64,000 nt of DNA from Pseudomonadota bacterium (GTDB taxonomy: Archaea > Thermoplasmatota > SW-10-69-26 > JACQPN01 > JAJPHT01): assembly GCA_021325135.1 (NCBI GenBank), contig JAJPHT010000046.1, positions 163,885-227,884 on the forward strand. The letters run 5' to 3'. The translations under genes and the position numbers were made by a program. Shown here one piece after another: positions 13,392 to 24,387 of this stretch. Each line of letters starts with the position of its first letter. Within the stretch, counting starts at the first letter, position 1. The notes under the pieces were generated by a model. The model ran no database searches, was not told the origin of the DNA, and saw only the letters and a list, made by a program, of their open reading frames with translations.

Positions 13392-13485
13392 GAGGCTTCC
13401 AACCGGGCCCGCGGATTCAACCTTGCGGGGCCGCGAAGCCCGACGACCCGGAAGCCTCATCTTGGGGGCCCCGGCTCGTCCCGCG

Positions 13486-15492
13486 ATGACGGACGCGGGC
13501 GCCCGCCTCGACGCGATCCTCGCTCGCCACAAGCTCCCGCTGCGCGACGCCGCCGCGCAGGACGCGCTCTGGCGCGAGCTTGCGGAGGGCCCCTTTGCGG
13601 AGCCCGGCGCGGTGCCCTTCGAGCGGCAGTGGGACGCGTGGCGGCGCGTCTTCGCGGAGCGCCCCGCGCACGCGCCGCCGCCCCCCGCGTACCAGCCTGA
13701 CGCGGCGCGCGTAGAACGGGCGAACGTGACCGCCCTCGCGCGCGAGGTGGGCGTCGCCAGCTACGCGGACCTTCAGCGCTGGAGCGCGGCGGACCGCGAC
13801 GGCTTCTGGGCGCGCGCGATCCAGGCCCTGGACGTGCCGTTCCGCGACCCGCCCCGCGCCATCCGCGAAGGCGGCGCCGAGGACCCCGCGTGGCTCCCCG
13901 GCGCGACGCTCAACGCGGTGGACCTCTGCTTCCGGGCTCCACCCGAGCGCGTCGCCATCGTGCTGGGCCGCGAGGGCGAGGAGCGCCTCCGCCACGTCAC
14001 CTACGGCGAGTTGGAGCGCATGACGAACCGCGTCGCGCACGGCTTCCGCGCGCTGGGCCTCGCGGCAGGCGACGCGGTCGCGCTCTACCTGCCCATGACC
14101 GTGGAGTGCGTCGCGGCGTACCTGGGCGTCATCCGCGCGGGCGGCGTCGTGGTGAGCATCGCGGACAGCTTCGCGCCTCCCGAGGTCGCGACGCGCCTGC
14201 GGCTGGCCGACGCCAAGGCGATCCTCACCACCGCCGCGTTCTCGCGGGGCGGGAAGACCTTCGACCTCTACGCCAAGGCGCGGGAGGCCGCCGCGCCGCG
14301 CGCCATCGTCGTGGGCGGCAAGCCCGAGCGCGAGGGCGACCTCGCGTGGGAGACGTTCCTGGGGCCCGCGCAGCCCTTCGAGAGCCTCGCCCTGGAGCCC
14401 ACGGCGCCGACCAACGTCCTCTTCAGCAGCGGCACGACGGGCGACCCCAAGGCGATCCCGTGGACGCACCTGACGCCGCTGAAGGCCGCCATGGACGCGC
14501 GATATCACCAGGACGTCCACGAGGATGATATCATCGCCTGGCCCACCAGCATCGGCTGGATGATGGGCCCGTGGCTCGTGTACGCCTCGCTGGCCAACCG
14601 CGCGACCATGGCCCTCTTCGAGGGCGCGCCGCAGTCGCCCGAGTTCCCGCGCTTCGTGGAGCGCGCGGGCGTCACCGTGCTGGGCGTCGTGCCGGCCCTC
14701 GTGCGCGCGTGGCGCGCCTCCGGCGCGGTGCAGCGCGAGCTCGCGAAGATCCGCGTCTTCAGCAGCACGGGCGAGGCCTCCAACGTCGAGGACTACCTCT
14801 GGCTCTCCAGCGCGGCGGGCCACCGCGCGCCCATCGTGGAGTACTGCGGCGGCACGGAGATCGGCGGCGGCCACCTCACGGGCACCGTCGTCCAGCCGCA
14901 GAGCCCCGCCACCTTCAGCACGCCCGCGCTGGGGCTCGACTTCGTCGTCCTCGACCACGAGGGCAAGCGCGAGGTCGCCGAGAACGAGATGGGCGAGATC
15001 TGGCTCATCCCCCCCAGCATCGGCCTCTCGCAGCGCCTCCTCCACCGCGACCACCACAAGGAATACTACGCGGACGCGCCGCGCGGCCCCCGGGGCGAGC
15101 TCCTGCGCCGGCACGGCGACGAGGTGGAGCGCCTCCCCGGCGGCCACTGGCGCGCCCACGGCCGCGCGGACGACACCATGAACCTGGGCGGCATCAAGGT
15201 GAGCAGCCTGGAGCTGGAGCGCGTCGTGGACCGCCACCCCCAGGTCTACCAGAGCGCGGCCGTCGCGGTGATCCCGCCCGAAGGGGGCGCGGACCAGCTG
15301 GTGGTCTTCGTCGTGCCCCGCGAAGGCGCGCGCCCCGAGCCCAAGGCGCTCCAGAACGAGCTTCAGGACTTGGTGAAGAGGGACCTCAACCCACTCTACC
15401 GCATCCACGACGTGGTGCTGGTGGACGCGCTGCCGCGCACGGCGAGCAACAAGATCGTGCGGCGGGAGCTGAGGAAGCGTTACCGGAAGTAG
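13486..15492 (+). CDS. AMP-forming acyl-CoA synthetase (acetyl/acetoacetyl-CoA synthetase-like)
   Basis: FSSGTTGDPK, STGE, YCGGTEIGG, GRADD, LPRTASNK. Confidence 0.92.
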   Translation: MTDAGARLDAILARHKLPLRDAAAQDALWRELAEGPFAEPGAVPFERQWDAWRRVFAERPAHAPPPPAYQPDAARVERANVTALAREVGVASYADLQRWSAADRDGFWARAIQALDVPFRDPPRAIREGGAEDPAWLPGATLNAVDLCFRAPPERVAIVLGREGEERLRHVTYGELERMTNRVAHGFRALGLAAGDAVALYLPMTVECVAAYLGVIRAGGVVVSIADSFAPPEVATRLRLADAKAILTTAAFSRGGKTFDLYAKAREAAAPRAIVVGGKPEREGDLAWETFLGPAQPFESLALEPTAPTNVLFSSGTTGDPKAIPWTHLTPLKAAMDARYHQDVHEDDIIAWPTSIGWMMGPWLVYASLANRATMALFEGAPQSPEFPRFVERAGVTVLGVVPALVRAWRASGAVQRELAKIRVFSSTGEASNVEDYLWLSSAAGHRAPIVEYCGGTEIGGGHLTGTVVQPQSPATFSTPALGLDFVVLDHEGKREVAENEMGEIWLIPPSIGLSQRLLHRDHHKEYYADAPRGPRGELLRRHGDEVERLPGGHWRAHGRADDTMNLGGIKVSSLELERVVDRHPQVYQSAAVAVIPPEGGADQLVVFVVPREGARPEPKALQNELQDLVKRDLNPLYRIHDVVLVDALPRTASNKIVRRELRKRYRK

Positions 15493-15638
15493 ACCCGCCA
15501 CCCTCCGAACCCGGGCCATGGCCGTTACATTCTTGCATGGGGAGCGCATCCGTCGGCATCTTGGCCAAGCGGGGAGGGTTAGTCGTGCCGCCGGTCACGT
15601 TCGGATCGTAGGATGCCTTCTCTGCCTGGGGAGCCCGC

Positions 15639-17591
15639 ATGCCCAACCGCCAGGCCACGCACGATCCCGAGATCGCCCTTCGATGGCTTCTGGCCATCCA
15701 GCGTGCTCCCGGTTTGACCTTCAGCGCGCTGCATCGCAAGGTCGGAGGAAAGGCGCTCCTGGCCCGGGAGCTTCTCGACGACCTGGAAGCCCGTCAGCTT
15801 GTCCGCACCGGTGAAGAGGAGAAGGATCGCCCCGGGCCCAGCGCCGACGGCCACTGGCTCACGTCGGATGGAGCGGTCTTCCTGGAAGACCTGCAGCGCA
15901 TCCTGCAGGAGTTCCCCAACCTCATGTTCGCGCACCGGCTCCTCCGGATCATCGGGGAGCAGCCGGACATCGCGTGGGCGCAGCTGCGCGACGAGGCGAG
16001 CACGAACAGCCAGAGCATGGCCGTCCACCGGGACCACCTGATCCACGAGGGATACGTGGAGCTTTTCGAGCGGGACCGGAAAGGGCACCGCCACCGCCGG
16101 ACCGCGAAAGGGGACGAGACCTTCAGGCGCATTGAGCAGGCCATGGGCAAGCTGGTGAAGCTCGACCAGCCCGAGGTGGGAGCCAAGCCTCCGGTGCGCG
16201 CCCCTCTCCCCCGGGCGATGGAGTCGTGGAGCAAGCTCACCTCGGTGCTCAAGCCCGCGCTCCGGATGGGGAAGGACGGCGTCACGGTCCACGACCCGGA
16301 GGCCCTCCGGGGAGAGCCCATCGACGCTCTCGCCCAGACGGCGGTCTTCGCCGTGGGGCCTACGCGCGACAGGGCGCGGGAGATCGTCCGGGCCCTGGCG
16401 CATCAGCAAGGCCTCGTTCCGGCAAGCCTCCAGCGGTTCTATCTGGCCCGCGCGCGAGGGCACATCGGGTCCTCCTTCACGGTCCCGGCATTCAACATCC
16501 GCGGCGCCACCTACGAGGTCGCGCGGGCCGCGTTCCGCGCCGCCAAGCGCCGCCACGTGGGCGCCATGATCTTCGAGATCGCCCGCAGCGAGACCGGCTA
16601 CACCGAGCAACGCCCCGCGGAATACGCCGTGGCGATCCTGGCTGCGGGCGTCAAGGAGGGGTTTCGCGGGCCCCTCTTCCTCCAGGGGGACCACTACCAG
16701 TTCACCCGACCCATCGAGTCCGCGCACCTCCAGGCGACTCAGTTCCAGCTGGAGAACCTCGTCCTGGAGAGCCTCGATGCCGGCTTCCGCCAGATCGACG
16801 TCGACGCCTCGCCCCTTGTCAACCCCGCCCTTCCGACCATCCCGGACCAGCAGGCCCTCAACGCGGTCCGCTCCGCCCGCCTGACGTCCTTCGTCCGCGA
16901 CCAGGAGGACGTTGGCCCTGGCGTCTGCGTCGGGGCCGAGGTGTCCGAGATCGGGGGGCCTCCGACAAGCCTGGCGGACGTCCACGCCTTCATGGATCGC
17001 TACACCCACGAGCTGCGCCGCCTGGGCCAGGGTCCGGGGCCGGCCAAGCTCAGCGTCAACACGCTCACGGGGACCGGAGGCTCCGGAGGCGCCCAGGTTT
17101 CCTTTGATCTTCTCTCTTCCATCTCGGAGGTCTGCCGCGAGACCTACGGCATGGCAGGAGTCGCGCAGCACGGGACGGCGGAGCTTCCCGACGCCGAGCT
17201 TCATCGCTTCGTGAAGGCGGGCGCTTGCGAGCTCCACGTGGCGACGGGGCTGCAGAACGCGCTCCTCGACCACCCCGAGTTCCCCCACGCGCTGCGCGCG
17301 AGGATGGACGCGTGGGTCAAGGCTCAGCAGGTGGCGAGCCCGGGGCAGACGCTCCAGAAGCTCCGGAAGCGAGCGTTCGGCCCTTTCAAGCGCGACCTGT
17401 GGGCCATCGAGCCGCACGTCATGGAGGCCATCGGGAAGGACCTGGAGGCCAAGTTCGACGTGATGTTCCAGGAGCTCGGGGTCGTGGACACCATGCCGCT
17501 CGTCGATCGCCTTGCGCGGAAGGATCCGCCCGGGTGGGGCGCAGGGACTTCCGGGTCACGGACGGCGCGTTCGACGACGCCGAGTTCCTGA
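15639..17591 (+). CDS. Tandem winged-HTH domains fused to a class II aldolase-like TIM barrel
   Basis: Two N-terminal wHTH-like units (ending WLTSDG and RTAKG); then VPAFNIRG, FEIARSE, QGDHYQ, IDVDAS, AQHG, ELHVAT of a class II fructose-bisphosphate aldolase-like family. Confidence 0.75.
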   Translation: MPNRQATHDPEIALRWLLAIQRAPGLTFSALHRKVGGKALLARELLDDLEARQLVRTGEEEKDRPGPSADGHWLTSDGAVFLEDLQRILQEFPNLMFAHRLLRIIGEQPDIAWAQLRDEASTNSQSMAVHRDHLIHEGYVELFERDRKGHRHRRTAKGDETFRRIEQAMGKLVKLDQPEVGAKPPVRAPLPRAMESWSKLTSVLKPALRMGKDGVTVHDPEALRGEPIDALAQTAVFAVGPTRDRAREIVRALAHQQGLVPASLQRFYLARARGHIGSSFTVPAFNIRGATYEVARAAFRAAKRRHVGAMIFEIARSETGYTEQRPAEYAVAILAAGVKEGFRGPLFLQGDHYQFTRPIESAHLQATQFQLENLVLESLDAGFRQIDVDASPLVNPALPTIPDQQALNAVRSARLTSFVRDQEDVGPGVCVGAEVSEIGGPPTSLADVHAFMDRYTHELRRLGQGPGPAKLSVNTLTGTGGSGGAQVSFDLLSSISEVCRETYGMAGVAQHGTAELPDAELHRFVKAGACELHVATGLQNALLDHPEFPHALRARMDAWVKAQQVASPGQTLQKLRKRAFGPFKRDLWAIEPHVMEAIGKDLEAKFDVMFQELGVVDTMPLVDRLARKDPPGWGAGTSGSRTARSTTPSS

Positions 17592-17724
17592 CCGTTCCTC
17601 CAGGGACGGCGGCTCCGCAGCACCGCACGAGACGCGAGGAACCCGCGGCATCTGAAGGATTAACTTGTCCAACGGAACTGCGCGCGCGGCGTCGCCTGGG
17701 AGGCGTCGCCTTGGAGGACCCGTC

Positions 17725-19242
17725 TTGACCACTGCCCCCGCCAGCCCCACCACGCCCCGCCTCGACGAGCTCACGTCGAACCCGCGCCGCCTCGACGCGC
17801 AGCGGGTCGACAAGCTCCGCCGCCTCGACGCGATGGGCTACGCGCCGCCCTACCGCTTCGTCCCGACCCACGACATCGCCCAGTTCCACGCGACGTTCGG
17901 ACGCCTCGGCGTGGGCGAGGAGGCCCCCGACGAGGTCGCCGTGCACGGCCGCGTCGACGCGATCCGCCGGATGGCGAAGGCCATCTTCGTCGACCTGCGC
18001 GACCCCGAGGGCGCGCGGCTCCAGATGTGCGTCCAGCGCCCCGCCGCAGGCCCCCTCTTCGACGGAGCGGCGCTCCTCGACACCGGGGACCGGATCGCCG
18101 TCCACGGTCGCCCCCTGCGCACCCAGAAGGGCGAGCTCTCGGTCCGCGCCGAGAAGCTCGTGCTGCTCTCGAAGTGCCTCCAGGCCGCGCCCAACGCCGG
18201 CCTCGACGCGGAGAACCGCCTGCGCGAGCCGTGGCTGGACCGCCTCTTCGATGACGCCGCCCGCCAGCGCCTCCTCGCGCGCGCCCGCGTCAAGCGCGCG
18301 CTCCACGACGTCATGGCCGTGGAGGGCTACGTCGAGATCGACCCGCCGCTCCTGAGCCGCAGCTACGGCGGCGCGGCCGCGCGCCCCTTCGTGACCGAGA
18401 GCAACGGCCTGGGGGGCGAGCAGCTCTTCCTCCAGATCTCCCCCGAGATCGCGCTCAAGAAGTGCGTCGTCGGGGGCCTCGACGCGGTGTACGCCGTCAC
18501 GCGAAACTTCCGCAACGAGGGCATCGATCCCAGCCACACGCCCGAGTTCGACGCCTTCGAGTGCTACCGCGTGGGCGCCGACTACGTCGACATGATGGAC
18601 CTGACGGAGCGCATCTTCCGCGCGTGCGCGCAGGCGGCCAACGGCACGACGCGCGTGACCTGCCGCGGCGCTGAGATCGACTTCGCGGCGCCCTGGCGCC
18701 GCGTCCGCATGCGCGACGCGGTCTGCGAGGCGCTCAAGCTGGGCGATCCGGACCTCGACGCGCTGCGCGACGCGCTTCAGGAGCACTCGCTCGACGCGAG
18801 CCGCGCGTCGAGCGAGGCCATGGCGATCAACCTCCTCTTCGAAGCGCGCGTGCAGGAGACGCTCGTCCAGCCGACCATCGTCCTCGACTACCCCGAGGAG
18901 ATCTCGCCCCTCACGCGCGCCCACCGCGCGGCGCCGGGGCTCGTCGAGCGCTTCGAGGCGTTCATCGGCGGGACCGAGTTCGCCAACGCCTACACCGAGC
19001 TCAACGACCCCTTCGAGCAGGAGCGCCGCCTGCGGCTCCAGGAGGAGGAGCGCCGCCGCGGCAACGACGAGGCCCACCCCCTGGATTGGAGCTTCGTGGA
19101 CGCGATGCGGTGCGGCTTCCCGCCCACGGGCGGCCTCGGGATCGGGCTCGACCGCATGGTCATGCTCCTGACGAGCTCGCCCACCATCCGCGCCATCCAG
19201 ACCGAGCCGCTGGTCCGCTCCCTGCCCGAGGAGGCCGGGTGA
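17725..19242 (+). CDS. lysS: Class II lysyl-tRNA synthetase, divergent
   Basis: OB-fold anticodon domain, YGGAAARPF, ISPE, motif 2 FRNEGID.SH.PEF, EFANAYTELNDP, motif 3 GGLGIGLDR; TTG start after GGAGG. Confidence 0.85.
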   Translation: MTTAPASPTTPRLDELTSNPRRLDAQRVDKLRRLDAMGYAPPYRFVPTHDIAQFHATFGRLGVGEEAPDEVAVHGRVDAIRRMAKAIFVDLRDPEGARLQMCVQRPAAGPLFDGAALLDTGDRIAVHGRPLRTQKGELSVRAEKLVLLSKCLQAAPNAGLDAENRLREPWLDRLFDDAARQRLLARARVKRALHDVMAVEGYVEIDPPLLSRSYGGAAARPFVTESNGLGGEQLFLQISPEIALKKCVVGGLDAVYAVTRNFRNEGIDPSHTPEFDAFECYRVGADYVDMMDLTERIFRACAQAANGTTRVTCRGAEIDFAAPWRRVRMRDAVCEALKLGDPDLDALRDALQEHSLDASRASSEAMAINLLFEARVQETLVQPTIVLDYPEEISPLTRAHRAAPGLVERFEAFIGGTEFANAYTELNDPFEQERRLRLQEEERRRGNDEAHPLDWSFVDAMRCGFPPTGGLGIGLDRMVMLLTSSPTIRAIQTEPLVRSLPEEAG

Positions 19243-19931
19243 TCCCGATGCTTGGCTCGCCCCGCCGCGAGGTCGACAAACGCGCGTTCGACGCGGTCCG
19301 CCGCGAGCTGGGGTTCTCCCTCGTGCGCTGCGCGGGCCACTCGCCGGAGGGCTGGGAGATCGAGTACCAGTCGCCCGAGGGCACGCTCAAGATGGCCACG
19401 CTCGCCGGCCGCATCGAGCTGCGCCAGGGCGCGCTCATCGCCGCCCTCACCCGCCTGGACAACGACGCCCTGGGGCGCGTGCAGGAGCGGTGGGAAGTCC
19501 GCGCCGGCGAGGTCGTGGAGGCCACGGAAGAGCCCGCCACCGACCTTCACCTCCTCAAGGCCGTCGTCCGGACGCACCCGCACGTGCGCCAGCTGCTGGC
19601 CACGGGCTTCTGTGGACGCCCGGGCTATCCCGAGGAGCCCCAGGATCTCGTGGGCGCGCACTTCGCGATCCTGGCCAACGCGCGCCCCAAGGCCTTCCCC
19701 TCTGTCGGCATCCAGAGCGAAGGCATGTTCCTGGGCTGCGAGAGCGACGACCACGTCGGGCTGCTGCGCTTCCGGCTTCCGCCGGCCGTGCGCCATCTGG
19801 AGCGCAACCTCGTGGACTGGCGGCTCTCGACCGACGGGCGCATCGCCGTTCCGGGCTGCTGGTTCGTTCGGAGGTTCTTCCCCGCCGAGCTCGCCTTCGG
19901 CGATTTCCCCACGGGATGGCCGGTCCAGTAG
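19239..19931 (+). CDS. Protein with divergent Trbp111/CsaA/EMAP-II-like tRNA-binding OB domain
   Basis: VRAGEVVEA...RQLLATG...Y..PQDLVG....LANARPK....GIQSEGMFLG; GTGA overlap with lysS stop. Confidence 0.65.
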   Translation: MIPMLGSPRREVDKRAFDAVRRELGFSLVRCAGHSPEGWEIEYQSPEGTLKMATLAGRIELRQGALIAALTRLDNDALGRVQERWEVRAGEVVEATEEPATDLHLLKAVVRTHPHVRQLLATGFCGRPGYPEEPQDLVGAHFAILANARPKAFPSVGIQSEGMFLGCESDDHVGLLRFRLPPAVRHLERNLVDWRLSTDGRIAVPGCWFVRRFFPAELAFGDFPTGWPVQ

Positions 19932-19997
19932 CCACACGCCCATGCGACGCCAGGAAGCGTGGTCGGGCCAACCGCAGATGCAGGTGCGGCGAGGCGC

Positions 19998-20270
19998 TCA
20001 CTCCGTCGGCGGCAGCGTGCAGTCGAAGACCTCGCGGCCCAGGACGAAGTAGCCGCACTCCTGGTGGCCGGCCGCGCTGCCCTGGTGGGCGTAGACGACC
20101 GTCTGGCCGTCCTCGACGCAGGTGAGGCGGTACGAGTCGCCCACGTCGTACTGGCTGGTCCACAGGTCGCAGGGGCCGACGCGGTGGTCGCCGAAGGGGT
20201 TGGGGACGGGAGTGGCCAGCGCGAGGGGCGTGGCGGCGAGCAGGATCGTAAGAAGCAGAAGAGTGCGCAT
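19998..20270 (-). CDS. Secreted 4-Cys microprotein, array member 5
   Basis: Signal peptide, VGPC motif, 4 Cys; GGAGGCAC RBS. Confidence 0.8.
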   Translation of the reverse strand: MRTLLLLTILLAATPLALATPVPNPFGDHRVGPCDLWTSQYDVGDSYRLTCVEDGQTVVYAHQGSAAGHQECGYFVLGREVFDCTLPPTE

Positions 20271-20321
20271 GGTGGTGCCTCCACAGGCGCACCACCAGGC
20301 GGGAAGATGACGTTTGCGGGC

Positions 20322-20615
20322 TCAGTTCACGAGGGGGCCGCAGCTGTAGAGGTCGTGGCCGTCGACCCAGTAGCCGCACTCCCACACGAGGCCGGCCTGG
20401 CCCTGGTGGAAGTAGATGCTGTGGCCCTCGACGTCGCACGTCAGGCGCGACGAGTCGCCCACGTCGAACTGGTTCGTCCAGTAGTCGCAGGGGCCGACGT
20501 AGTGGTCGCCGTAGGGGCTGGGGTGCGGGATCGCGATGGGGCCGGGGAGCGGGCCTGCAAGCGCGAGGGGGGTCGCCAGGAGCGCGAGCGCAGCAAGGAC
20601 AAGGGGGGTTCGCAT
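20322..20615 (-). CDS. Secreted 4-Cys microprotein, array member 4
   Basis: Signal peptide; GDHYVGPCDYWTNQFDVGDS closely matches member 5; GGAGGCAC RBS. Confidence 0.8.
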   Translation of the reverse strand: MRTPLVLAALALLATPLALAGPLPGPIAIPHPSPYGDHYVGPCDYWTNQFDVGDSSRLTCDVEGHSIYFHQGQAGLVWECGYWVDGHDLYSCGPLVN

Positions 20616-20681
20616 GGGTGTGCCTCCGCCGCGTGACGGTGGCGGGGAGGCATCACCCTTGCGGCGGAGCAGCGTCGCGGG

Positions 20682-20954
20682 TCAAGCCGGCACGCCGCAG
20701 GGGACGAAGACCGTGGCGCCGTCCACGTTGGCGTACGCGTAGTCGCCCAGCGCGCACGTGCCGTAGCTGGCGCGGGCGGACTGGCCGGCTGCGGCGCAGC
20801 CGACGCCCAGCGCCTCGCCGGGCCAGAGGAGCGACCACGAGACGACGCAGGGGCCCACCGTGACGGGGGGCTGCGGGAGCGAGGGGCGCGCGGCGGCGAG
20901 GGGCGCCAGCAAGGCGAGCGCCACGAGAAGAAGGGCGACACGCACGGCGCTCAC
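20682..20954 (-). CDS. Secreted 4-Cys microprotein, array member 3 (most divergent)
   Basis: C-terminal part of track ORF 20682..22919; signal peptide, VGPC, 4 Cys; GTGA overlap with upstream stop. Confidence 0.7.
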   Translation of the reverse strand: MSAVRVALLLVALALLAPLAAARPSLPQPPVTVGPCVVSWSLLWPGEALGVGCAAAGQSARASYGTCALGDYAYANVDGATVFVPCGVPA

Positions 20955-21232
20955 TCCGTCCCGGGGGAGCACTGCTCCAGGGTCTGGCCGAGGACGCGCA
21001 GGTGGCACGAGTGGCCCAGGAGCGTCATGCTGTCGGCGTAGTCGAAGACCTCGATGCCTTCGGCGGAGCACCCGGCGGCGCGCGACTCGGCGTCCACATT
21101 GAAGCCCCACGACGCGTGGCACGGGCCCACGACGTAGCTGCCGTGGTCGAGGGGGGGCAGGGGCGAGGCCTGCGCGAGGGGCGCCAGCGCAAGGAGGGCC
21201 AGGAGGCCGGCCAGGACGGGGGCGCGCATCAT
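20951..21232 (-). CDS. Secreted 4-Cys microprotein, array member 2
   Basis: MMRAPVLAGLL signal, VGPCH, GHSCHLRVLGQTLEQC; ATGA overlap with upstream stop. Confidence 0.8.
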   Translation of the reverse strand: MMRAPVLAGLLALLALAPLAQASPLPPLDHGSYVVGPCHASWGFNVDAESRAAGCSAEGIEVFDYADSMTLLGHSCHLRVLGQTLEQCSPGTE

Positions 21233-21513
21233 TCCCCCTCCGGGGGCGGGCACTGCTCGAGGGTCTGGCCCGCGACGCGCAGGCCGCAGGAGTGGCCCCC
21301 GATGGTGGTGCCGTCCCAGTACGAGAGGACCTCCTGGCCCGCGACCCCGCACGAGACGGAGGTGACGCTGCCTTCGAACCACGTGACCTTCTCCACGTGG
21401 CAGGGGCCGACGGTCTCGTCGACGTTGCCGTTGGGCAGCGGGGGCGCGGCGGACGCGGCCGGGAGCAGGAGAAGCAGGATGAGCAGCGCGGGGAGCGCAA
21501 GCAGGGTTCGCAT
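21229..21513 (-). CDS. Secreted 4-Cys microprotein, array member 1
   Basis: MRTLLALPALL signal, VGPCH, GHSCGLRVAGQTLEQC; GGAGGCAC upstream. Confidence 0.8.
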   Translation of the reverse strand: MRTLLALPALLILLLLLPAASAAPPLPNGNVDETVGPCHVEKVTWFEGSVTSVSCGVAGQEVLSYWDGTTIGGHSCGLRVAGQTLEQCPPPEGE

Positions 21514-21577
21514 GGGGGTTTGTGCCTCCGGAAGCGGAGAGCGCCGCTGCACGTTTGGGGATTGCGGGCCCGCAGAC

Positions 21578-21585
21578 CCTTAAAT
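21578..21585 (+). promoter_or_regulatory. TATA-like box between divergent asnS and microprotein array
   Basis: CTTAAAT about 25 nt upstream of the asnS GTG. Confidence 0.5.
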
Positions 21586-21608
21586 GCCAGGCGTTCCCTG
21601 CGGAGGCC

Positions 21609-22970
21609 GTGAGCCCGCCCCTCGTCTCCATCCGCAGCGTCCTCTCGGGCCAGCACACCGGCCAGAAGGTCCACCTGCGCGGCTGGATCCACCGCTACCG
21701 CACCAGCGGCAAGATCGTCTTCGCCACGCTGCGCGACGCGACGGGCACCCTCCAGACGACGACGAAGAAGGGCGTCGCCGACGACGCGTCGTTCGAGGAG
21801 GCCCTCAAGGGGAGCATCGAGGCCTCGGTGGAGCTGACCGGCACGGTCAAGGCGGACGAGCGCGCGCCGGGCGGCTTCGAGGTGGGCGTCGAGCAGTTCC
21901 ACCTCGTGGGAAGCTCCCACGACTTCCCCATCTACGAGAGCACCGTGGACGCCGACGCGCAGGAGACGCTCCTGGACAAGCGCCACCTCTTCCTGCGCAG
22001 CCGCCACCTGGCCAACGCCATGATCCTGCGCGCGAAGACGCTCAAGGCCTTCCGCGAGTGGTTCGACGAGCACGGCTTCTTCGAGACGACGCCCAGCGTC
22101 ATCACCACCAACAACTGCGAAGGCGGCAGCGAGGTCTTCGAGTTCGACTACTTCGGCCAGAAGGCCTTCCTCAGCCAGAGCAGCCAGCTCTACCTCGAAG
22201 CGCTGGTGTTCGGCCTGGAGCGCGTCTACTGCCTGCTGCCCAGCTTCCGCGCCGAGAAGAGCCGCACCCGCAAGCACCTCACCGAGTTCCAGCACCTGGA
22301 GGCCGAGGAGGCCTGGGTGGACAACAAGGGCAACATGGAGATCCAGGAGCAGCTCGTCTCCTACGTCGCGCGTCGCGTCGCCGACACCGCAGAGGAGCAG
22401 CTCGTCGCCCTGGGCCGCGAGCCGGCGGACCTGCGCAAGGTCACGACGCCGTTCAAGCGCCACACCTACGACGAGGCCATCTCGCTGCTGCGCAAGAAGG
22501 ACTACGACCGCGGCCGCGACGCCAAGGGGCGCAGGCGCGGCGCCATCGAGTGGGGCGAGGACCTGGGCGCGCCCGACGAGGCCGCGCTGGTGGAGGGCGA
22601 GGAGAAGCCCGTCTTCGTCATGAACTGGCCCGCCGACATGAAGGCCTTCTACATGCACAGCAACGGCGACGGCACCGTGGCCAACGCCGACATGATCGCG
22701 CCCTTCGGCTTCGGCGAGATCATCGGCGGCAGCCAGCGCAGCACCGACGTCGAGTGGATGAAGGGGCGCCTCGTGGAGCAGGCCAAGCGCGACGGCACCG
22801 CGCTGGACCTCAACGCCTACGAGTGGTACTTCGACCTGCGCCGCTACGGCAGCGTGCCCCACGCCGGCTTCGGCCTGGGCACCGAGCGCGTCGTCCGGTG
22901 GCTGGGCAACCTGGACCACATCCGCGACGCGACCCCCTTCCCCCGGACGCCGAGCCGCGCGTACCCGTAG
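21609..22970 (+). CDS. asnS: Asparaginyl-tRNA synthetase
   Basis: CEGGS..F, LSQSSQLYLE, FRAEKSRT.KHL.EF, GEIIGGSQR, WY.DLRRYGSVPHAGFGLG.ER, FPR. Confidence 0.93.
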   Translation: MSPPLVSIRSVLSGQHTGQKVHLRGWIHRYRTSGKIVFATLRDATGTLQTTTKKGVADDASFEEALKGSIEASVELTGTVKADERAPGGFEVGVEQFHLVGSSHDFPIYESTVDADAQETLLDKRHLFLRSRHLANAMILRAKTLKAFREWFDEHGFFETTPSVITTNNCEGGSEVFEFDYFGQKAFLSQSSQLYLEALVFGLERVYCLLPSFRAEKSRTRKHLTEFQHLEAEEAWVDNKGNMEIQEQLVSYVARRVADTAEEQLVALGREPADLRKVTTPFKRHTYDEAISLLRKKDYDRGRDAKGRRRGAIEWGEDLGAPDEAALVEGEEKPVFVMNWPADMKAFYMHSNGDGTVANADMIAPFGFGEIIGGSQRSTDVEWMKGRLVEQAKRDGTALDLNAYEWYFDLRRYGSVPHAGFGLGTERVVRWLGNLDHIRDATPFPRTPSRAYP

Positions 22971-22996: not shown

Positions 22997-23051
22997 GTCA
23001 CGTGACCGGTCACGTGACGCGGTCGGCTGCATCACGTGACCGGTCACGTGA
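22997..23051. repeat. Two direct copies of the perfect 20-bp palindrome TCACGTGACCGGTCACGTGA
   Basis: Copies at 22998-23017 and 23032-23051 (34-bp period), between convergent genes. Confidence 0.9.
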
Positions 23052-23136
23052 ACCACGGACCCCCCTTTGGCGCCCGTGGCGCGTCGGCGTTTGCCGCAGG
23101 GCCGCGAAGCGCGGGACCGCCCAACCCAGCCCCCGC

Positions 23137-23805
23137 TCAGCACGCCACGTTGTAGGCGAGCCCGTCGGAGCCCACGACGCCCCCGATGGAGCCCGCGGGG
23201 TCGGCGACGATGTCGTTCCATGTGGTGGGGTCGGAGTCCGAGGGGAGGGGCACGCCGCCCACGCTGCGGACGTTGGTGACCTGCGCGAGGCCGATGGTGG
23301 CGACGACGGTCTTCGCGCTGGGGCACTGGAAGACCTCGCCGAAGATCTTGACCTCCGCGTTGGTGCTGAAGAAGCCGCTGCTGGCGGACGCGCTGCCGTC
23401 GTAGGCGAACCAGTACGCCTGCGCGCGGTTCGCCAGCGTGCGCGTGCCCTGCGCCGGCGAGCCGGAGAGCGAGATGCCCTGCGCGGTGGCGGAGTCGCGG
23501 ATGCGCTGCGAGAGGTCCTTCCGCACGGTGTCCTCGTTGGGCCGCAGCAGCTCGCGCAGCGTCCGCACGGCGAGCTGCCCCTGATAGCCCGACCCCGAGC
23601 CTGCGGGGTGGTCGTACACGAGGACCTGGCTCTTGGAGAACGCGCTCCCCGAGGGCGCCCCCTGGGAGGCGGTGGCGTTCTTCTGCCAGCCGTTCCCGCC
23701 TGCGCCCTCCAGCAGGCGGTCGGGCACGCGCGCGGGCCGCAGGTCGAGGCAGCCCGGGAGCGCCAGGGCCGCGGCCAGGAGGAGGGCGAGGAGCCGGAGG
23801 CGCAC
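23137..23805 (-). CDS. Lipoprotein-like hypothetical protein
   Basis: VRLRLLALLLAAALALPGC lipobox-like N-terminus; normal globular composition. Confidence 0.75.
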   Translation of the reverse strand: MRLRLLALLLAAALALPGCLDLRPARVPDRLLEGAGGNGWQKNATASQGAPSGSAFSKSQVLVYDHPAGSGSGYQGQLAVRTLRELLRPNEDTVRKDLSQRIRDSATAQGISLSGSPAQGTRTLANRAQAYWFAYDGSASASSGFFSTNAEVKIFGEVFQCPSAKTVVATIGLAQVTNVRSVGGVPLPSDSDPTTWNDIVADPAGSIGGVVGSDGLAYNVAC

Positions 23806-23862
23806 GCGTCGCCACCGCAGGGCCGGGAAAAGAACCTTTTCGGAGGCCGCCCGTGCCGCCGC

Positions 23863-24387
23863 GTGATCGAGTTCGAGGTGAAGGCCCCCGTCCCCCCGGA
23901 GCGGGTCGACGCCCTGCGCGCCATGCTCGGACCCCCGCGGAGGGTCGAGGAGCACGAGGACGCGTACTACGCGCACCCGTGCCGCGACTTCGCCGCCACC
24001 GACGAGGCGCTGCGCCTCTCGCGCCGCGGCGGGCGCGCCGACCTCACCTACAAGGGGCCCCGGCTCGACGCCCGCACCAAGGCGCGCCGCGAGATCGTGC
24101 TGCCCGTGGCGGACGAGCGCGCCGCGCAGGCCCTCGTCGAGGCGCTGGGGTTCCGCCCCTCCCTCGTCGTGCGCAAGCGCCGCTCCCTCCACGAGGCGCA
24201 AGGCTTCGAGGTCGCGCTGGACGAGGTCCCGCCCCTGGGGCACTTCGTCGAGGTCGAGCGCCAGCTCCCGGAGGGCTCGGACCGCGCGGCCGCCGAGCGC
24301 GAGGCAATGGCGCTCCTCGCGTCGTGGGGCCTTGTCCACACCGAGCGGCGCAGCTACCTGGAGATGCTCCTGGAGGCGCGCCAGTGA
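23863..24387 (+). CDS. cyaB: CYTH-domain protein (class IV adenylate cyclase/triphosphatase-like)
   Basis: EFEVK (ExExK), D.YY.HP.RDF..TDEALR, LTYKGP, K.R.E, LG.FVEVE, RRSYLE. Confidence 0.9.
   Translation: MIEFEVKAPVPPERVDALRAMLGPPRRVEEHEDAYYAHPCRDFAATDEALRLSRRGGRADLTYKGPRLDARTKARREIVLPVADERAAQALVEALGFRPSLVVRKRRSLHEAQGFEVALDEVPPLGHFVEVERQLPEGSDRAAAEREAMALLASWGLVHTERRSYLEMLLEARQ

Follow-up and report, generated by a model that had tools for sequence, protein, structure and literature searches.

The stretch of DNA analysed here (the window, 64,000 nucleotides; G000:C40:163885-227884) belongs to a metagenome-assembled genome (MAG) of the archaeal phylum Thermoplasmatota, 3.77 Mb in size with 72% GC, and contains a divergent gene for a class II lysyl-tRNA synthetase (LysRS2) followed by a gene for a putative tRNA-binding protein, here called the partner. 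To our knowledge, no aminoacyl-tRNA synthetase other than lysyl-tRNA synthetase (LysRS) comes in two structural classes that are unrelated to each other. Together with an upstream gene for a protein that combines winged helix-turn-helix (wHTH) units with a class II aldolase-like domain, the two genes lie on the + strand within a segment of variable DNA, which is bordered by an acs-like gene (13423-15492) and by asnS (about 21600-22970). In synteny comparisons by tblastx and blastn, the gap between the two bordering genes measures about 880 bp in the same-genus genome G001, where it holds a single lipoprotein-like gene (254 residues, L047:11102-11866), and 6.1 kb in the source genome, G000. The features of the segment are listed in Table 1.

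Table 1. Features of the variable segment between the acs-like gene and asnS
Feature	Position in window	Strand	Basis
Variable DNA, ~6.1 kb	15493..21600		Between acs-like gene and asnS; tblastx/blastn synteny versus G001
wHTH + class II aldolase-like protein, 650 aa	15639..17591	+	Pfam F_bP_aldolase 32.2 bits, GatZ_KbaZ-like 26.6
Shine-Dalgarno-like GGAGGA	17713..17718	+	6 nt 5' of TTG start; read from sequence
Divergent class II LysRS, 505 aa	17725..19242	+	N-terminal anticodon-binding OB fold and class II catalytic core
GTGA overlap	19239..19242	+	Partner GTG start over LysRS TGA stop (19240-19242); read from sequence
Partner, Trbp111/MetRS-C-like tRNA-binding protein, 230 aa	19239..19931	+	Pfam tRNA_bind, PDB profile search, AF2/Foldseek
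Five paralogous small secreted-protein genes	19998-21552	-	List of open reading frames, GC3 phase, paralogous repeats D1-D3

The genes that flank the insertion share 70-90% protein identity with same-genus genomes, and both flanks are located on one contig. The inserted genes have a GC content at third codon positions (GC3) of 0.88-0.97, in line with host genes, which means that the genes were either transferred long ago or derive from a donor whose composition resembled that of the host. Near-identical copies are found in different public sources, on contigs of 227,884, 306,863 and 351,346 nt. With the identity of the flanks, the host-like GC3 and the recurrent copies as basis, contamination is unlikely; for the MAG as a whole it is estimated at 5.6%. 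The genome encodes TBP, a family that among control genomes matches archaea only. The reading as a mobile element finds no support, as neither att-like repeats flanking the insertion nor an integrase or a tRNA target was found, and there was no plasmid or viral match. A defence system was rejected, with PADLOC giving no match.

The open reading frame (ORF) of the LysRS2 gene (17665-19242, +) has a stop-free translation. Its start is likely the TTG codon at 17725, because a Shine-Dalgarno-like sequence is present upstream and because the homologue P0007 begins at the same alignment column. Pfam assigns an anticodon-binding oligonucleotide/oligosaccharide-binding (OB) domain to residues 71-148 (PF01336, tRNA_anti-codon, 41.6 bits) and a class II core to residues 162-492 (PF00152, tRNA-synt_2, 233 bits). 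With respect to the NCBIfam cut-offs for ordinary enzymes, the protein is barely above the line (TIGR00499, lysS_bact, 429.2 versus 427.6 bits; NF001756, 475.2 versus 468). It scores below the cut-off for EpmA/PoxA (TIGR00462, 195.2 versus 286.9 bits), with the OB domain present, and below that for LysX (NF002821, 387.9 versus 742), where the match is limited to the LysRS part (model positions 623-1099); the curated AspRS and AsnRS models fail too. The best PDB matches are the bacterial LysRS2 structures 9jkl, 3a74 and 1e1o, nearly full length and with E of about 1e-97 to 1e-95.

Among 5.8 billion clusters, the only close relatives are P0007 (64% identity) and P0008 (51%), all others being ordinary LysRS2 at 40-45% identity, and a scan of genome contigs with the LysRS sequence found no close relatives. 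Maximum-likelihood trees place the three proteins in a clade of their own, with 100% support in the Shimodaira-Hasegawa-like approximate likelihood-ratio test (SH-aLRT) and a long stem of 0.75-0.81. The trees do not fix the place of this clade among LysRS2; the LysRS2 found in other Thermoplasmatota do not form its sister group.

The extent of the divergence was counted over 134 alignment columns with a conservation of 90% or more among 117 ordinary LysRS2. All three clade members keep 91 of these columns and depart from 21 others. The clade-wide changes are found in the ‘GK’ motif of the OB fold, in the hinge (158-173), in the motif-1 region (206-211), at positions 226, 237-247, 257, 276, 284 and 456, and in the C-terminal VIxFP (492-494). 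Thus, the near-invariant hinge motif RYRQRYLDL is replaced by RLREPWLDRL, and the C-terminal (I/V)RDVIxFP by IRAIQTEP, with the Y, Q, R, Y, L and F positions of these motifs altered in every clade member. Motifs 2 and 3 are kept, and so are the residues for lysine, i.e., G of GGAAARPF, E of ISPE, E/Y of FECY and N/E of ANAYTE, and for ATP (R/E of FRNE, H, F, E, E and the R of LDR). Compared with the 117 LysRS2 and 9jkl, the sole change among these lysine- and ATP-binding elements is an asparagine next to the motif-2 histidine, which is threonine or serine. Arg81, Phe88 and Gln100 in the OB fold are invariant and align with the class IIb positions for recognition of U35. The roles given for the lysine, ATP and U35 residues follow those in the LysU and class IIb structures. 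Judged by these residues, the protein is a catalytically complete, full-length LysRS2 with an anticodon-binding domain. A first-pass annotation had described the gene as a LysRS that departs from normally near-invariant motifs and retains the apparent lysine- and ATP-binding residues. All motifs that it quoted are present (RLREPWLDRL, LQISPEIALKK, FRNEG, FECY, EFANAYTE, GIGLDR and IRAIQTEP), and the column count bears out the departure as the alignment does the retention.

G000 also carries an intact class I LysRS gene, lysK, on contig C6. It is stop-free and full-length, covering positions 1-512 of the 515 in model TIGR00467, and its 500.8 bits (cut-off 147.6) resemble the scores of its relatives. 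Of 41 genomes sampled from the phylum, 40 have a class I LysRS above cut-off, and G000 is the only one with a class II LysRS above cut-off. Four same-genus genomes (86-99% complete) are without LysRS2 and without the partner gene. In a wider sample of 401 Thermoplasmatota genomes, a class II LysRS above cut-off occurs in 27, which belong to few other families and whose enzymes are not related to that of G000. The full-length partner is limited to G000 among the 401, and the remaining partner matches are confined to the OB core of MetRS or to Trbp-like proteins of about 115 residues. The class II LysRS of G000 is not the housekeeping enzyme, but an accessory one.

Within the phylum, class II LysRS is found in all nine sampled genomes of one Thermoplasmatota family and in 9 of 19 of another. 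Two LysRS2-like genes with scores below cut-off and very long branches were also noted, G097:C5:28243-29652 (L067, 375.6 bits) and G161:C970:70-1458 (L068, 277.8 bits). As possible relatives of the clade, these two and the ordinary Thermoplasmatota LysRS2 were rejected by the trees. A LysRS2 fragment in the same-family genome G006 (G006:C789:4-606, L015) was rejected as well, being of ordinary bacterial type with no significant match to P0006. This fragment, the N-terminal half of a LysRS2 on a 1-kb contig with 64% GC, is 44-46% identical to cyanobacterial and other bacterial LysRS2, and is probably bin contamination.

The start codon of the partner gene overlaps the LysRS stop codon, as had been proposed from the GTGA sequence at the junction. 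Translation could alternatively begin at ATG 19248; both starts are represented among public gene calls, which give 230 and 227 residues. Two further public calls, P0004 (320 residues) and P0130 (307 residues), extend 5' into the LysRS gene, reading its 3'-terminal part in the partner frame, and so gain an N-terminus rich in Arg and Pro. They are not fusions but artefacts of the kind that gene callers commonly produce on high-GC DNA. In the partner protein, PF01588 (tRNA_bind) matches residues 87-177 with 31.7 bits (cut-off 27), and the SEGM motif is present; the NCBIfam tRNA-binding-protein model NF007492 reaches 13.7 against a cut-off of 150. The protein consists of an N-terminal domain (residues 1-82) and an OB fold (residues 83-230), the latter with an insertion of about 40 residues (~178-218). 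The first-pass annotation had proposed an OB fold with additional N- and C-terminal domains. The OB fold and the separate N-terminal domain stand, but since the last conserved OB strand (FG.FP.GWPV, alignment A6) is located at the extreme C-terminus, the supposed C-terminal domain is the insertion that precedes this strand.

In the PDB, a profile of the partner family finds 1mkh, the MetRS C-terminal domain (3.3e-8), and 1pyb, Trbp111 (2.7e-6), over residues 83-176. The AF2 model built from an 11-sequence alignment has predicted local distance difference test (pLDDT) values of mostly 79-92 for residues 91-190, 68-84 for residues 191-230, and 33-63 for the N-terminal domain; a model from a two-sequence alignment was unusable (pLDDT 36.7). 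With the 11-sequence model, Foldseek returned MetRS-C, CsaA and Trbp111 (5h34, 2nzh, 8vtz and 1gd7) at template-modelling (TM) scores of 0.71-0.75, with 5h34, 2nzh and 8vtz as the top matches at 0.71-0.73. This match is partly circular, as OB homologues were included in the alignment behind the model. Pfam gave no match in the N-terminal 84 residues and none in the ~40-residue insertion, and the ESM Atlas gave no usable match for the partner. Searched exhaustively with HMMER, 1.84 billion representatives yielded only two other full-length family members, P0005 (60% identity) and P0126 (30%, E = 5e-21); no close relative was found in metagenome contigs or viral contigs (alignment scan), or in plasmids (tblastn).

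In a co-crystal structure of Trbp111 with tRNA from 2024, the fold clamps the 3'-terminal C75-A76 by means of Lys73, Pro74, Arg75, Ile77, Phe78, Ser82 and Met85 (PMC11286949). The partner residues Arg149, Pro150, Lys151, Phe153/Pro154, Ser160 and Met163 align with Lys73, Pro74, Arg75, Ile77/Phe78, Ser82 and Met85, where the position equivalent to Phe78 is ambiguous owing to a two-residue insert. These residues are invariant in the three members of the partner family except for Arg149 and Pro154, which in P0126 are lysine and arginine, respectively. The same pocket in MCP1 and Arc1p hydrolyses Ala-tRNA, according to a study from 2025 (PMC12021450). As in Trbp111, CsaA and MetRS-C, the conserved KP(R/K)...S.GM loop of the OB fold in the partner would be expected to clamp the 3'-CA of tRNA. 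Unlike Trbp111 and CsaA, the partner is twice the size, with an extra N-terminal domain of ~82 residues, inserts of four and two residues and the ~40-residue insertion. It also departs from the stand-alone form of ~110 residues in that the insertion is placed where the dimer-interface strands would lie. The partner family has three members, each apparently paired with a LysRS2, and defines a previously undescribed branch of the Trbp111/EMAPII OB family.

The protein encoded upstream of the LysRS gene contains two MarR-like winged-helix units at residues ~14-64 and ~99-141, for which the MarR_2 and MarR models both score below cut-off. In its aldolase-like domain, TxHGG is replaced by NTLTGTGG in combination with a deletion of eight to nine residues. 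This applies to the protein itself (P0134) and to its one full-length homologue, P0135 (52% identity, 96% coverage), whereas 108 of 118 ordinary aldolase-like relatives of ~470 residues retain TxHGG. The GDH and QHG motifs are kept. The histidines of GDH, QHG and TxHGG are presumably the aldolase metal ligands, and the three-histidine metal site of PF01116 is incomplete. This wHTH-pseudoaldolase is a probable ligand-sensing regulator of the module. Aldolase-like domains of the same family, with TxHGG intact, are also found fused to ThiI (THUMP + ThiI) in the metagenomic proteins P0213 and P0247 of ~890-900 residues, and this fusion is a second link of the family to a tRNA/thiamin enzyme.

According to the cluster table, P0007 (LysRS), P0005 (partner) and P0135 (wHTH-aldolase) are each present on one contig of 7208 nt. 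For P0008 (LysRS) and P0126 (partner), it lists four contigs each, with a maximum length of 23,350 nt. The matching counts and sizes point to a conserved module of two to three genes; the LysRS-partner pair would then be conserved in all three lineages and the triple in at least two. Identity across the lineages is 51-64% for LysRS and 30-60% for the partner. The catalytic and RNA-binding residues have been kept in spite of this divergence, which indicates purifying selection. The earlier suggestion of an accessory pair, as opposed to a sole and vertically inherited LysRS, agrees with the finding of lysK on C6, with the separate long-stem clade in the phylogeny, and with the placement of the gene in a 6.1-kb insertion relative to G001. 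The association of the two genes is supported in that the two full-length partner homologues share contig counts and longest contig sizes with the two closest LysRS homologues.

Both tRNALys genes of the host, with anticodons CUU and UUU, are ordinary and have G73 as discriminator. No tRNA gene is present in the window, no Rfam family in the insertion, and no tRNAOther-like RNA was found. A tRNA-SeC(TCA) reported by ARAGORN at G000:C15:46271-46358 was rejected, with no Rfam tRNA at this site and an empty result when the excised region was re-run in intron-search mode, and is probably a false positive.

We consider it probable that the insertion represents a horizontally acquired accessory operon that supplies a host having a class I housekeeping LysRS with a regulated back-up LysRS2 and a dedicated cofactor for the tRNA 3' end. 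A LysRS2 dimer would activate L-lysine and charge the ordinary tRNALys(CUU/UUU) of the host. The partner may dock on the synthetase by its unique N-terminal domain or by the insertion, and capture the 3' end of the tRNA. It could thereby raise the affinity for tRNA, or pass the 3' end to or from an active site with remodelled hinge and acceptor-side surfaces. The wHTH-pseudoaldolase would be a small-molecule-sensing transcription factor that turns the pair on under particular conditions, and in physiological terms the enzyme would be a LysRS from the other structural class that is kept as a back-up or for conditional use. Several points speak against this explanation. The base composition gives no hint of a recent transfer, and neither the LysRS2 trees nor the scan of genome contigs identified a donor lineage. 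The activity of the LysRS, the expression of the pair and the contact between LysRS and partner are predictions, and the adjacency of the genes in the other two lineages is deduced entirely from matching contig counts and sizes. The putative role as regulator is drawn from sub-threshold MarR matches and one lost motif. Furthermore, the 21 clade-wide changes could go beyond adaptation to a helper and reflect an altered acceptor substrate.

This last point leads to a possibility that we regard as unlikely, albeit the strongest of the alternatives, namely that the pair does not produce Lys-tRNALys for the ribosome. LysRS2 could lysylate a non-tRNA acceptor or a CCA-ended RNA, or supply a non-ribosomal transferase, or the partner could be a deacylase or carrier acting in trans. 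The clade-wide changes at the hinge and other normally invariant LysRS2 positions would be compatible with such a role, as would the presence of a sugar-phosphate-type aldolase-like domain in the module. Paralogues of aminoacyl-tRNA synthetases with functions outside translation exist, and the EpmA and LysX models match partially. The Trbp/EMAPII-type OB domain of MCP1 and Arc1p is an aminoacyl-tRNA deacylase that needs the same 3'-end residues (PMC12021450). However, the anticodon-binding OB domain is intact with its U35-aligned residues, whereas EpmA is without this domain, and the EpmA and LysX scores are far below their cut-offs (195 versus 287 and 388 versus 742). The insertion holds no gene for a transferase (MprF, Fem or CDPS-like), and no unusual tRNA or RNA family occurs nearby. 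As for an EpmA-like function or Ap4A synthesis, which the first-pass annotation had brought up, the data speak neither for nor against them.

We give somewhat less credence to a more specialised arrangement in which LysRS2 and the partner form an obligate machine, where the partner would hold or hydrolyse the 3' end in trans-editing or hand-off, or in which LysRS2 would lysylate another CCA RNA or serve a non-ribosomal supply under a sugar-phosphate-sensing regulator. If true, either version would be a new type of prokaryotic synthetase-cofactor system.

It is more doubtful that a displacement is in progress, with the class II enzyme being or becoming the main LysRS and class I on its way out. 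Class switching has occurred in the phylum, as seen from the 27 of 401 genomes with an ordinary class II LysRS, but these enzymes are not related to that of G000. The lysK gene of G000 is full-length and stop-free with a normal score, the class II gene is missing from all four same-genus genomes, and the presence of its own putative regulator suggests conditional use. That the insertion arose in assembly or binning, or is a functionless transfer remnant in decay, is very improbable: the contamination estimate of the MAG and the extreme rarity of the family would fit, but both flanks are syntenic with a same-genus genome within one contig, the insertion recurs in independent assemblies, and the three ORFs are intact, with residues kept under apparent purifying selection between diverged lineages.

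As an accessory LysRS2 with a dedicated cofactor, the pair can be compared with several known systems. The LysRS2 of G000 resembles bacterial LysS and LysU (TIGR00499; 1e1o, 3a74, 9jkl) in the two-domain architecture, the lysine and ATP residues, motifs 2 and 3, and the U35-aligned OB residues. It differs in the low identity of 40-45%, in the 21 changed positions, in the coexistence with a class I LysRS and in having a dedicated partner gene. Bacillus cereus has a housekeeping LysRS2 and an ancillary LysRS1 that was horizontally acquired and is T-box-regulated and active in stationary phase (PMC2916919). As in G000, two LysRS of opposite classes are thus present in one genome, and the extra one is acquired, has a regulatory device of its own and is thought to be ancillary. 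The classes are reversed, however, with a resident class I and an acquired class II enzyme in G000; the host is an archaeon, and the module includes a Trbp-like helper. While regulation in B. cereus is by a riboswitch, the putative regulator in G000 is a protein, the wHTH-pseudoaldolase, and a counterpart to tRNAOther is missing from the RNAs found.

The combination of LysRS2 with an additional OB domain has a parallel in Entamoeba LysRS, where an EMAPII-like OB domain is fused in cis (PMC3226552). The structure of this enzyme (4up7) is among the PDB matches of both LysRS and partner. A Trbp/EMAPII-type OB domain tied to an aminoacyl-tRNA synthetase is also seen in the trans-acting cofactors Arc1p, AIMP1 (p43) and MCP1, with Arc1p and MCP1 even having deacylase activity. 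In contrast to these proteins, no docking domain similar to glutathione S-transferase (GST) was detected in the partner by Pfam, the genes are arranged in a prokaryotic operon with stop/start overlap, and the interaction is a predicted one. The partner would then be a prokaryotic, operon-encoded analogue of the eukaryotic cofactors Arc1p, AIMP1 and MCP1. The system thus combines two known kinds, a genome with both LysRS classes and a tRNA-binding cofactor acting in trans, and adds a new three-member family of OB proteins.

Genomes with both LysRS classes are rare, and are informative as to the way in which one class displaces or supplements the other. G000 presents the reverse of the B. cereus case that has been studied, i.e., an archaeon with a resident class I enzyme that has gained class II. 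The 3'-end-binding protein and the putative regulator that travel with the LysRS2 suggest that a synthetase of foreign origin may depend on a helper transferred along with it to deal with the tRNAs of a new host. Because the family is so rare, the general significance is uncertain.

The remainder of the insertion is occupied by the five paralogous genes on the - strand, which converge on the partner gene. They encode microproteins of about 90-107 residues with a signal peptide, a VGPC motif and four cysteines, and although they share the insertion, we regard them as separate from the aminoacylation module. The adjoining asnS ORF (21522-22970, +) scores 434 bits with NF003037 (cut-off 414) and is 80-90% identical in same-genus genomes; by its sequence, it is the vertically inherited housekeeping AsnRS. 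The true start of asnS is probably near 21600, because the first part of the ORF is shared with the divergent microprotein gene. Further downstream (23002-24387, +), a protein of 461 residues is encoded whose C-terminal domain is CYTH/CyaB-like (TIGR00318, 123.6 bits), preceded by an N-terminal part of ~288 residues. At 23003-23046, a palindrome produced an miRNA match on both strands, which is spurious.

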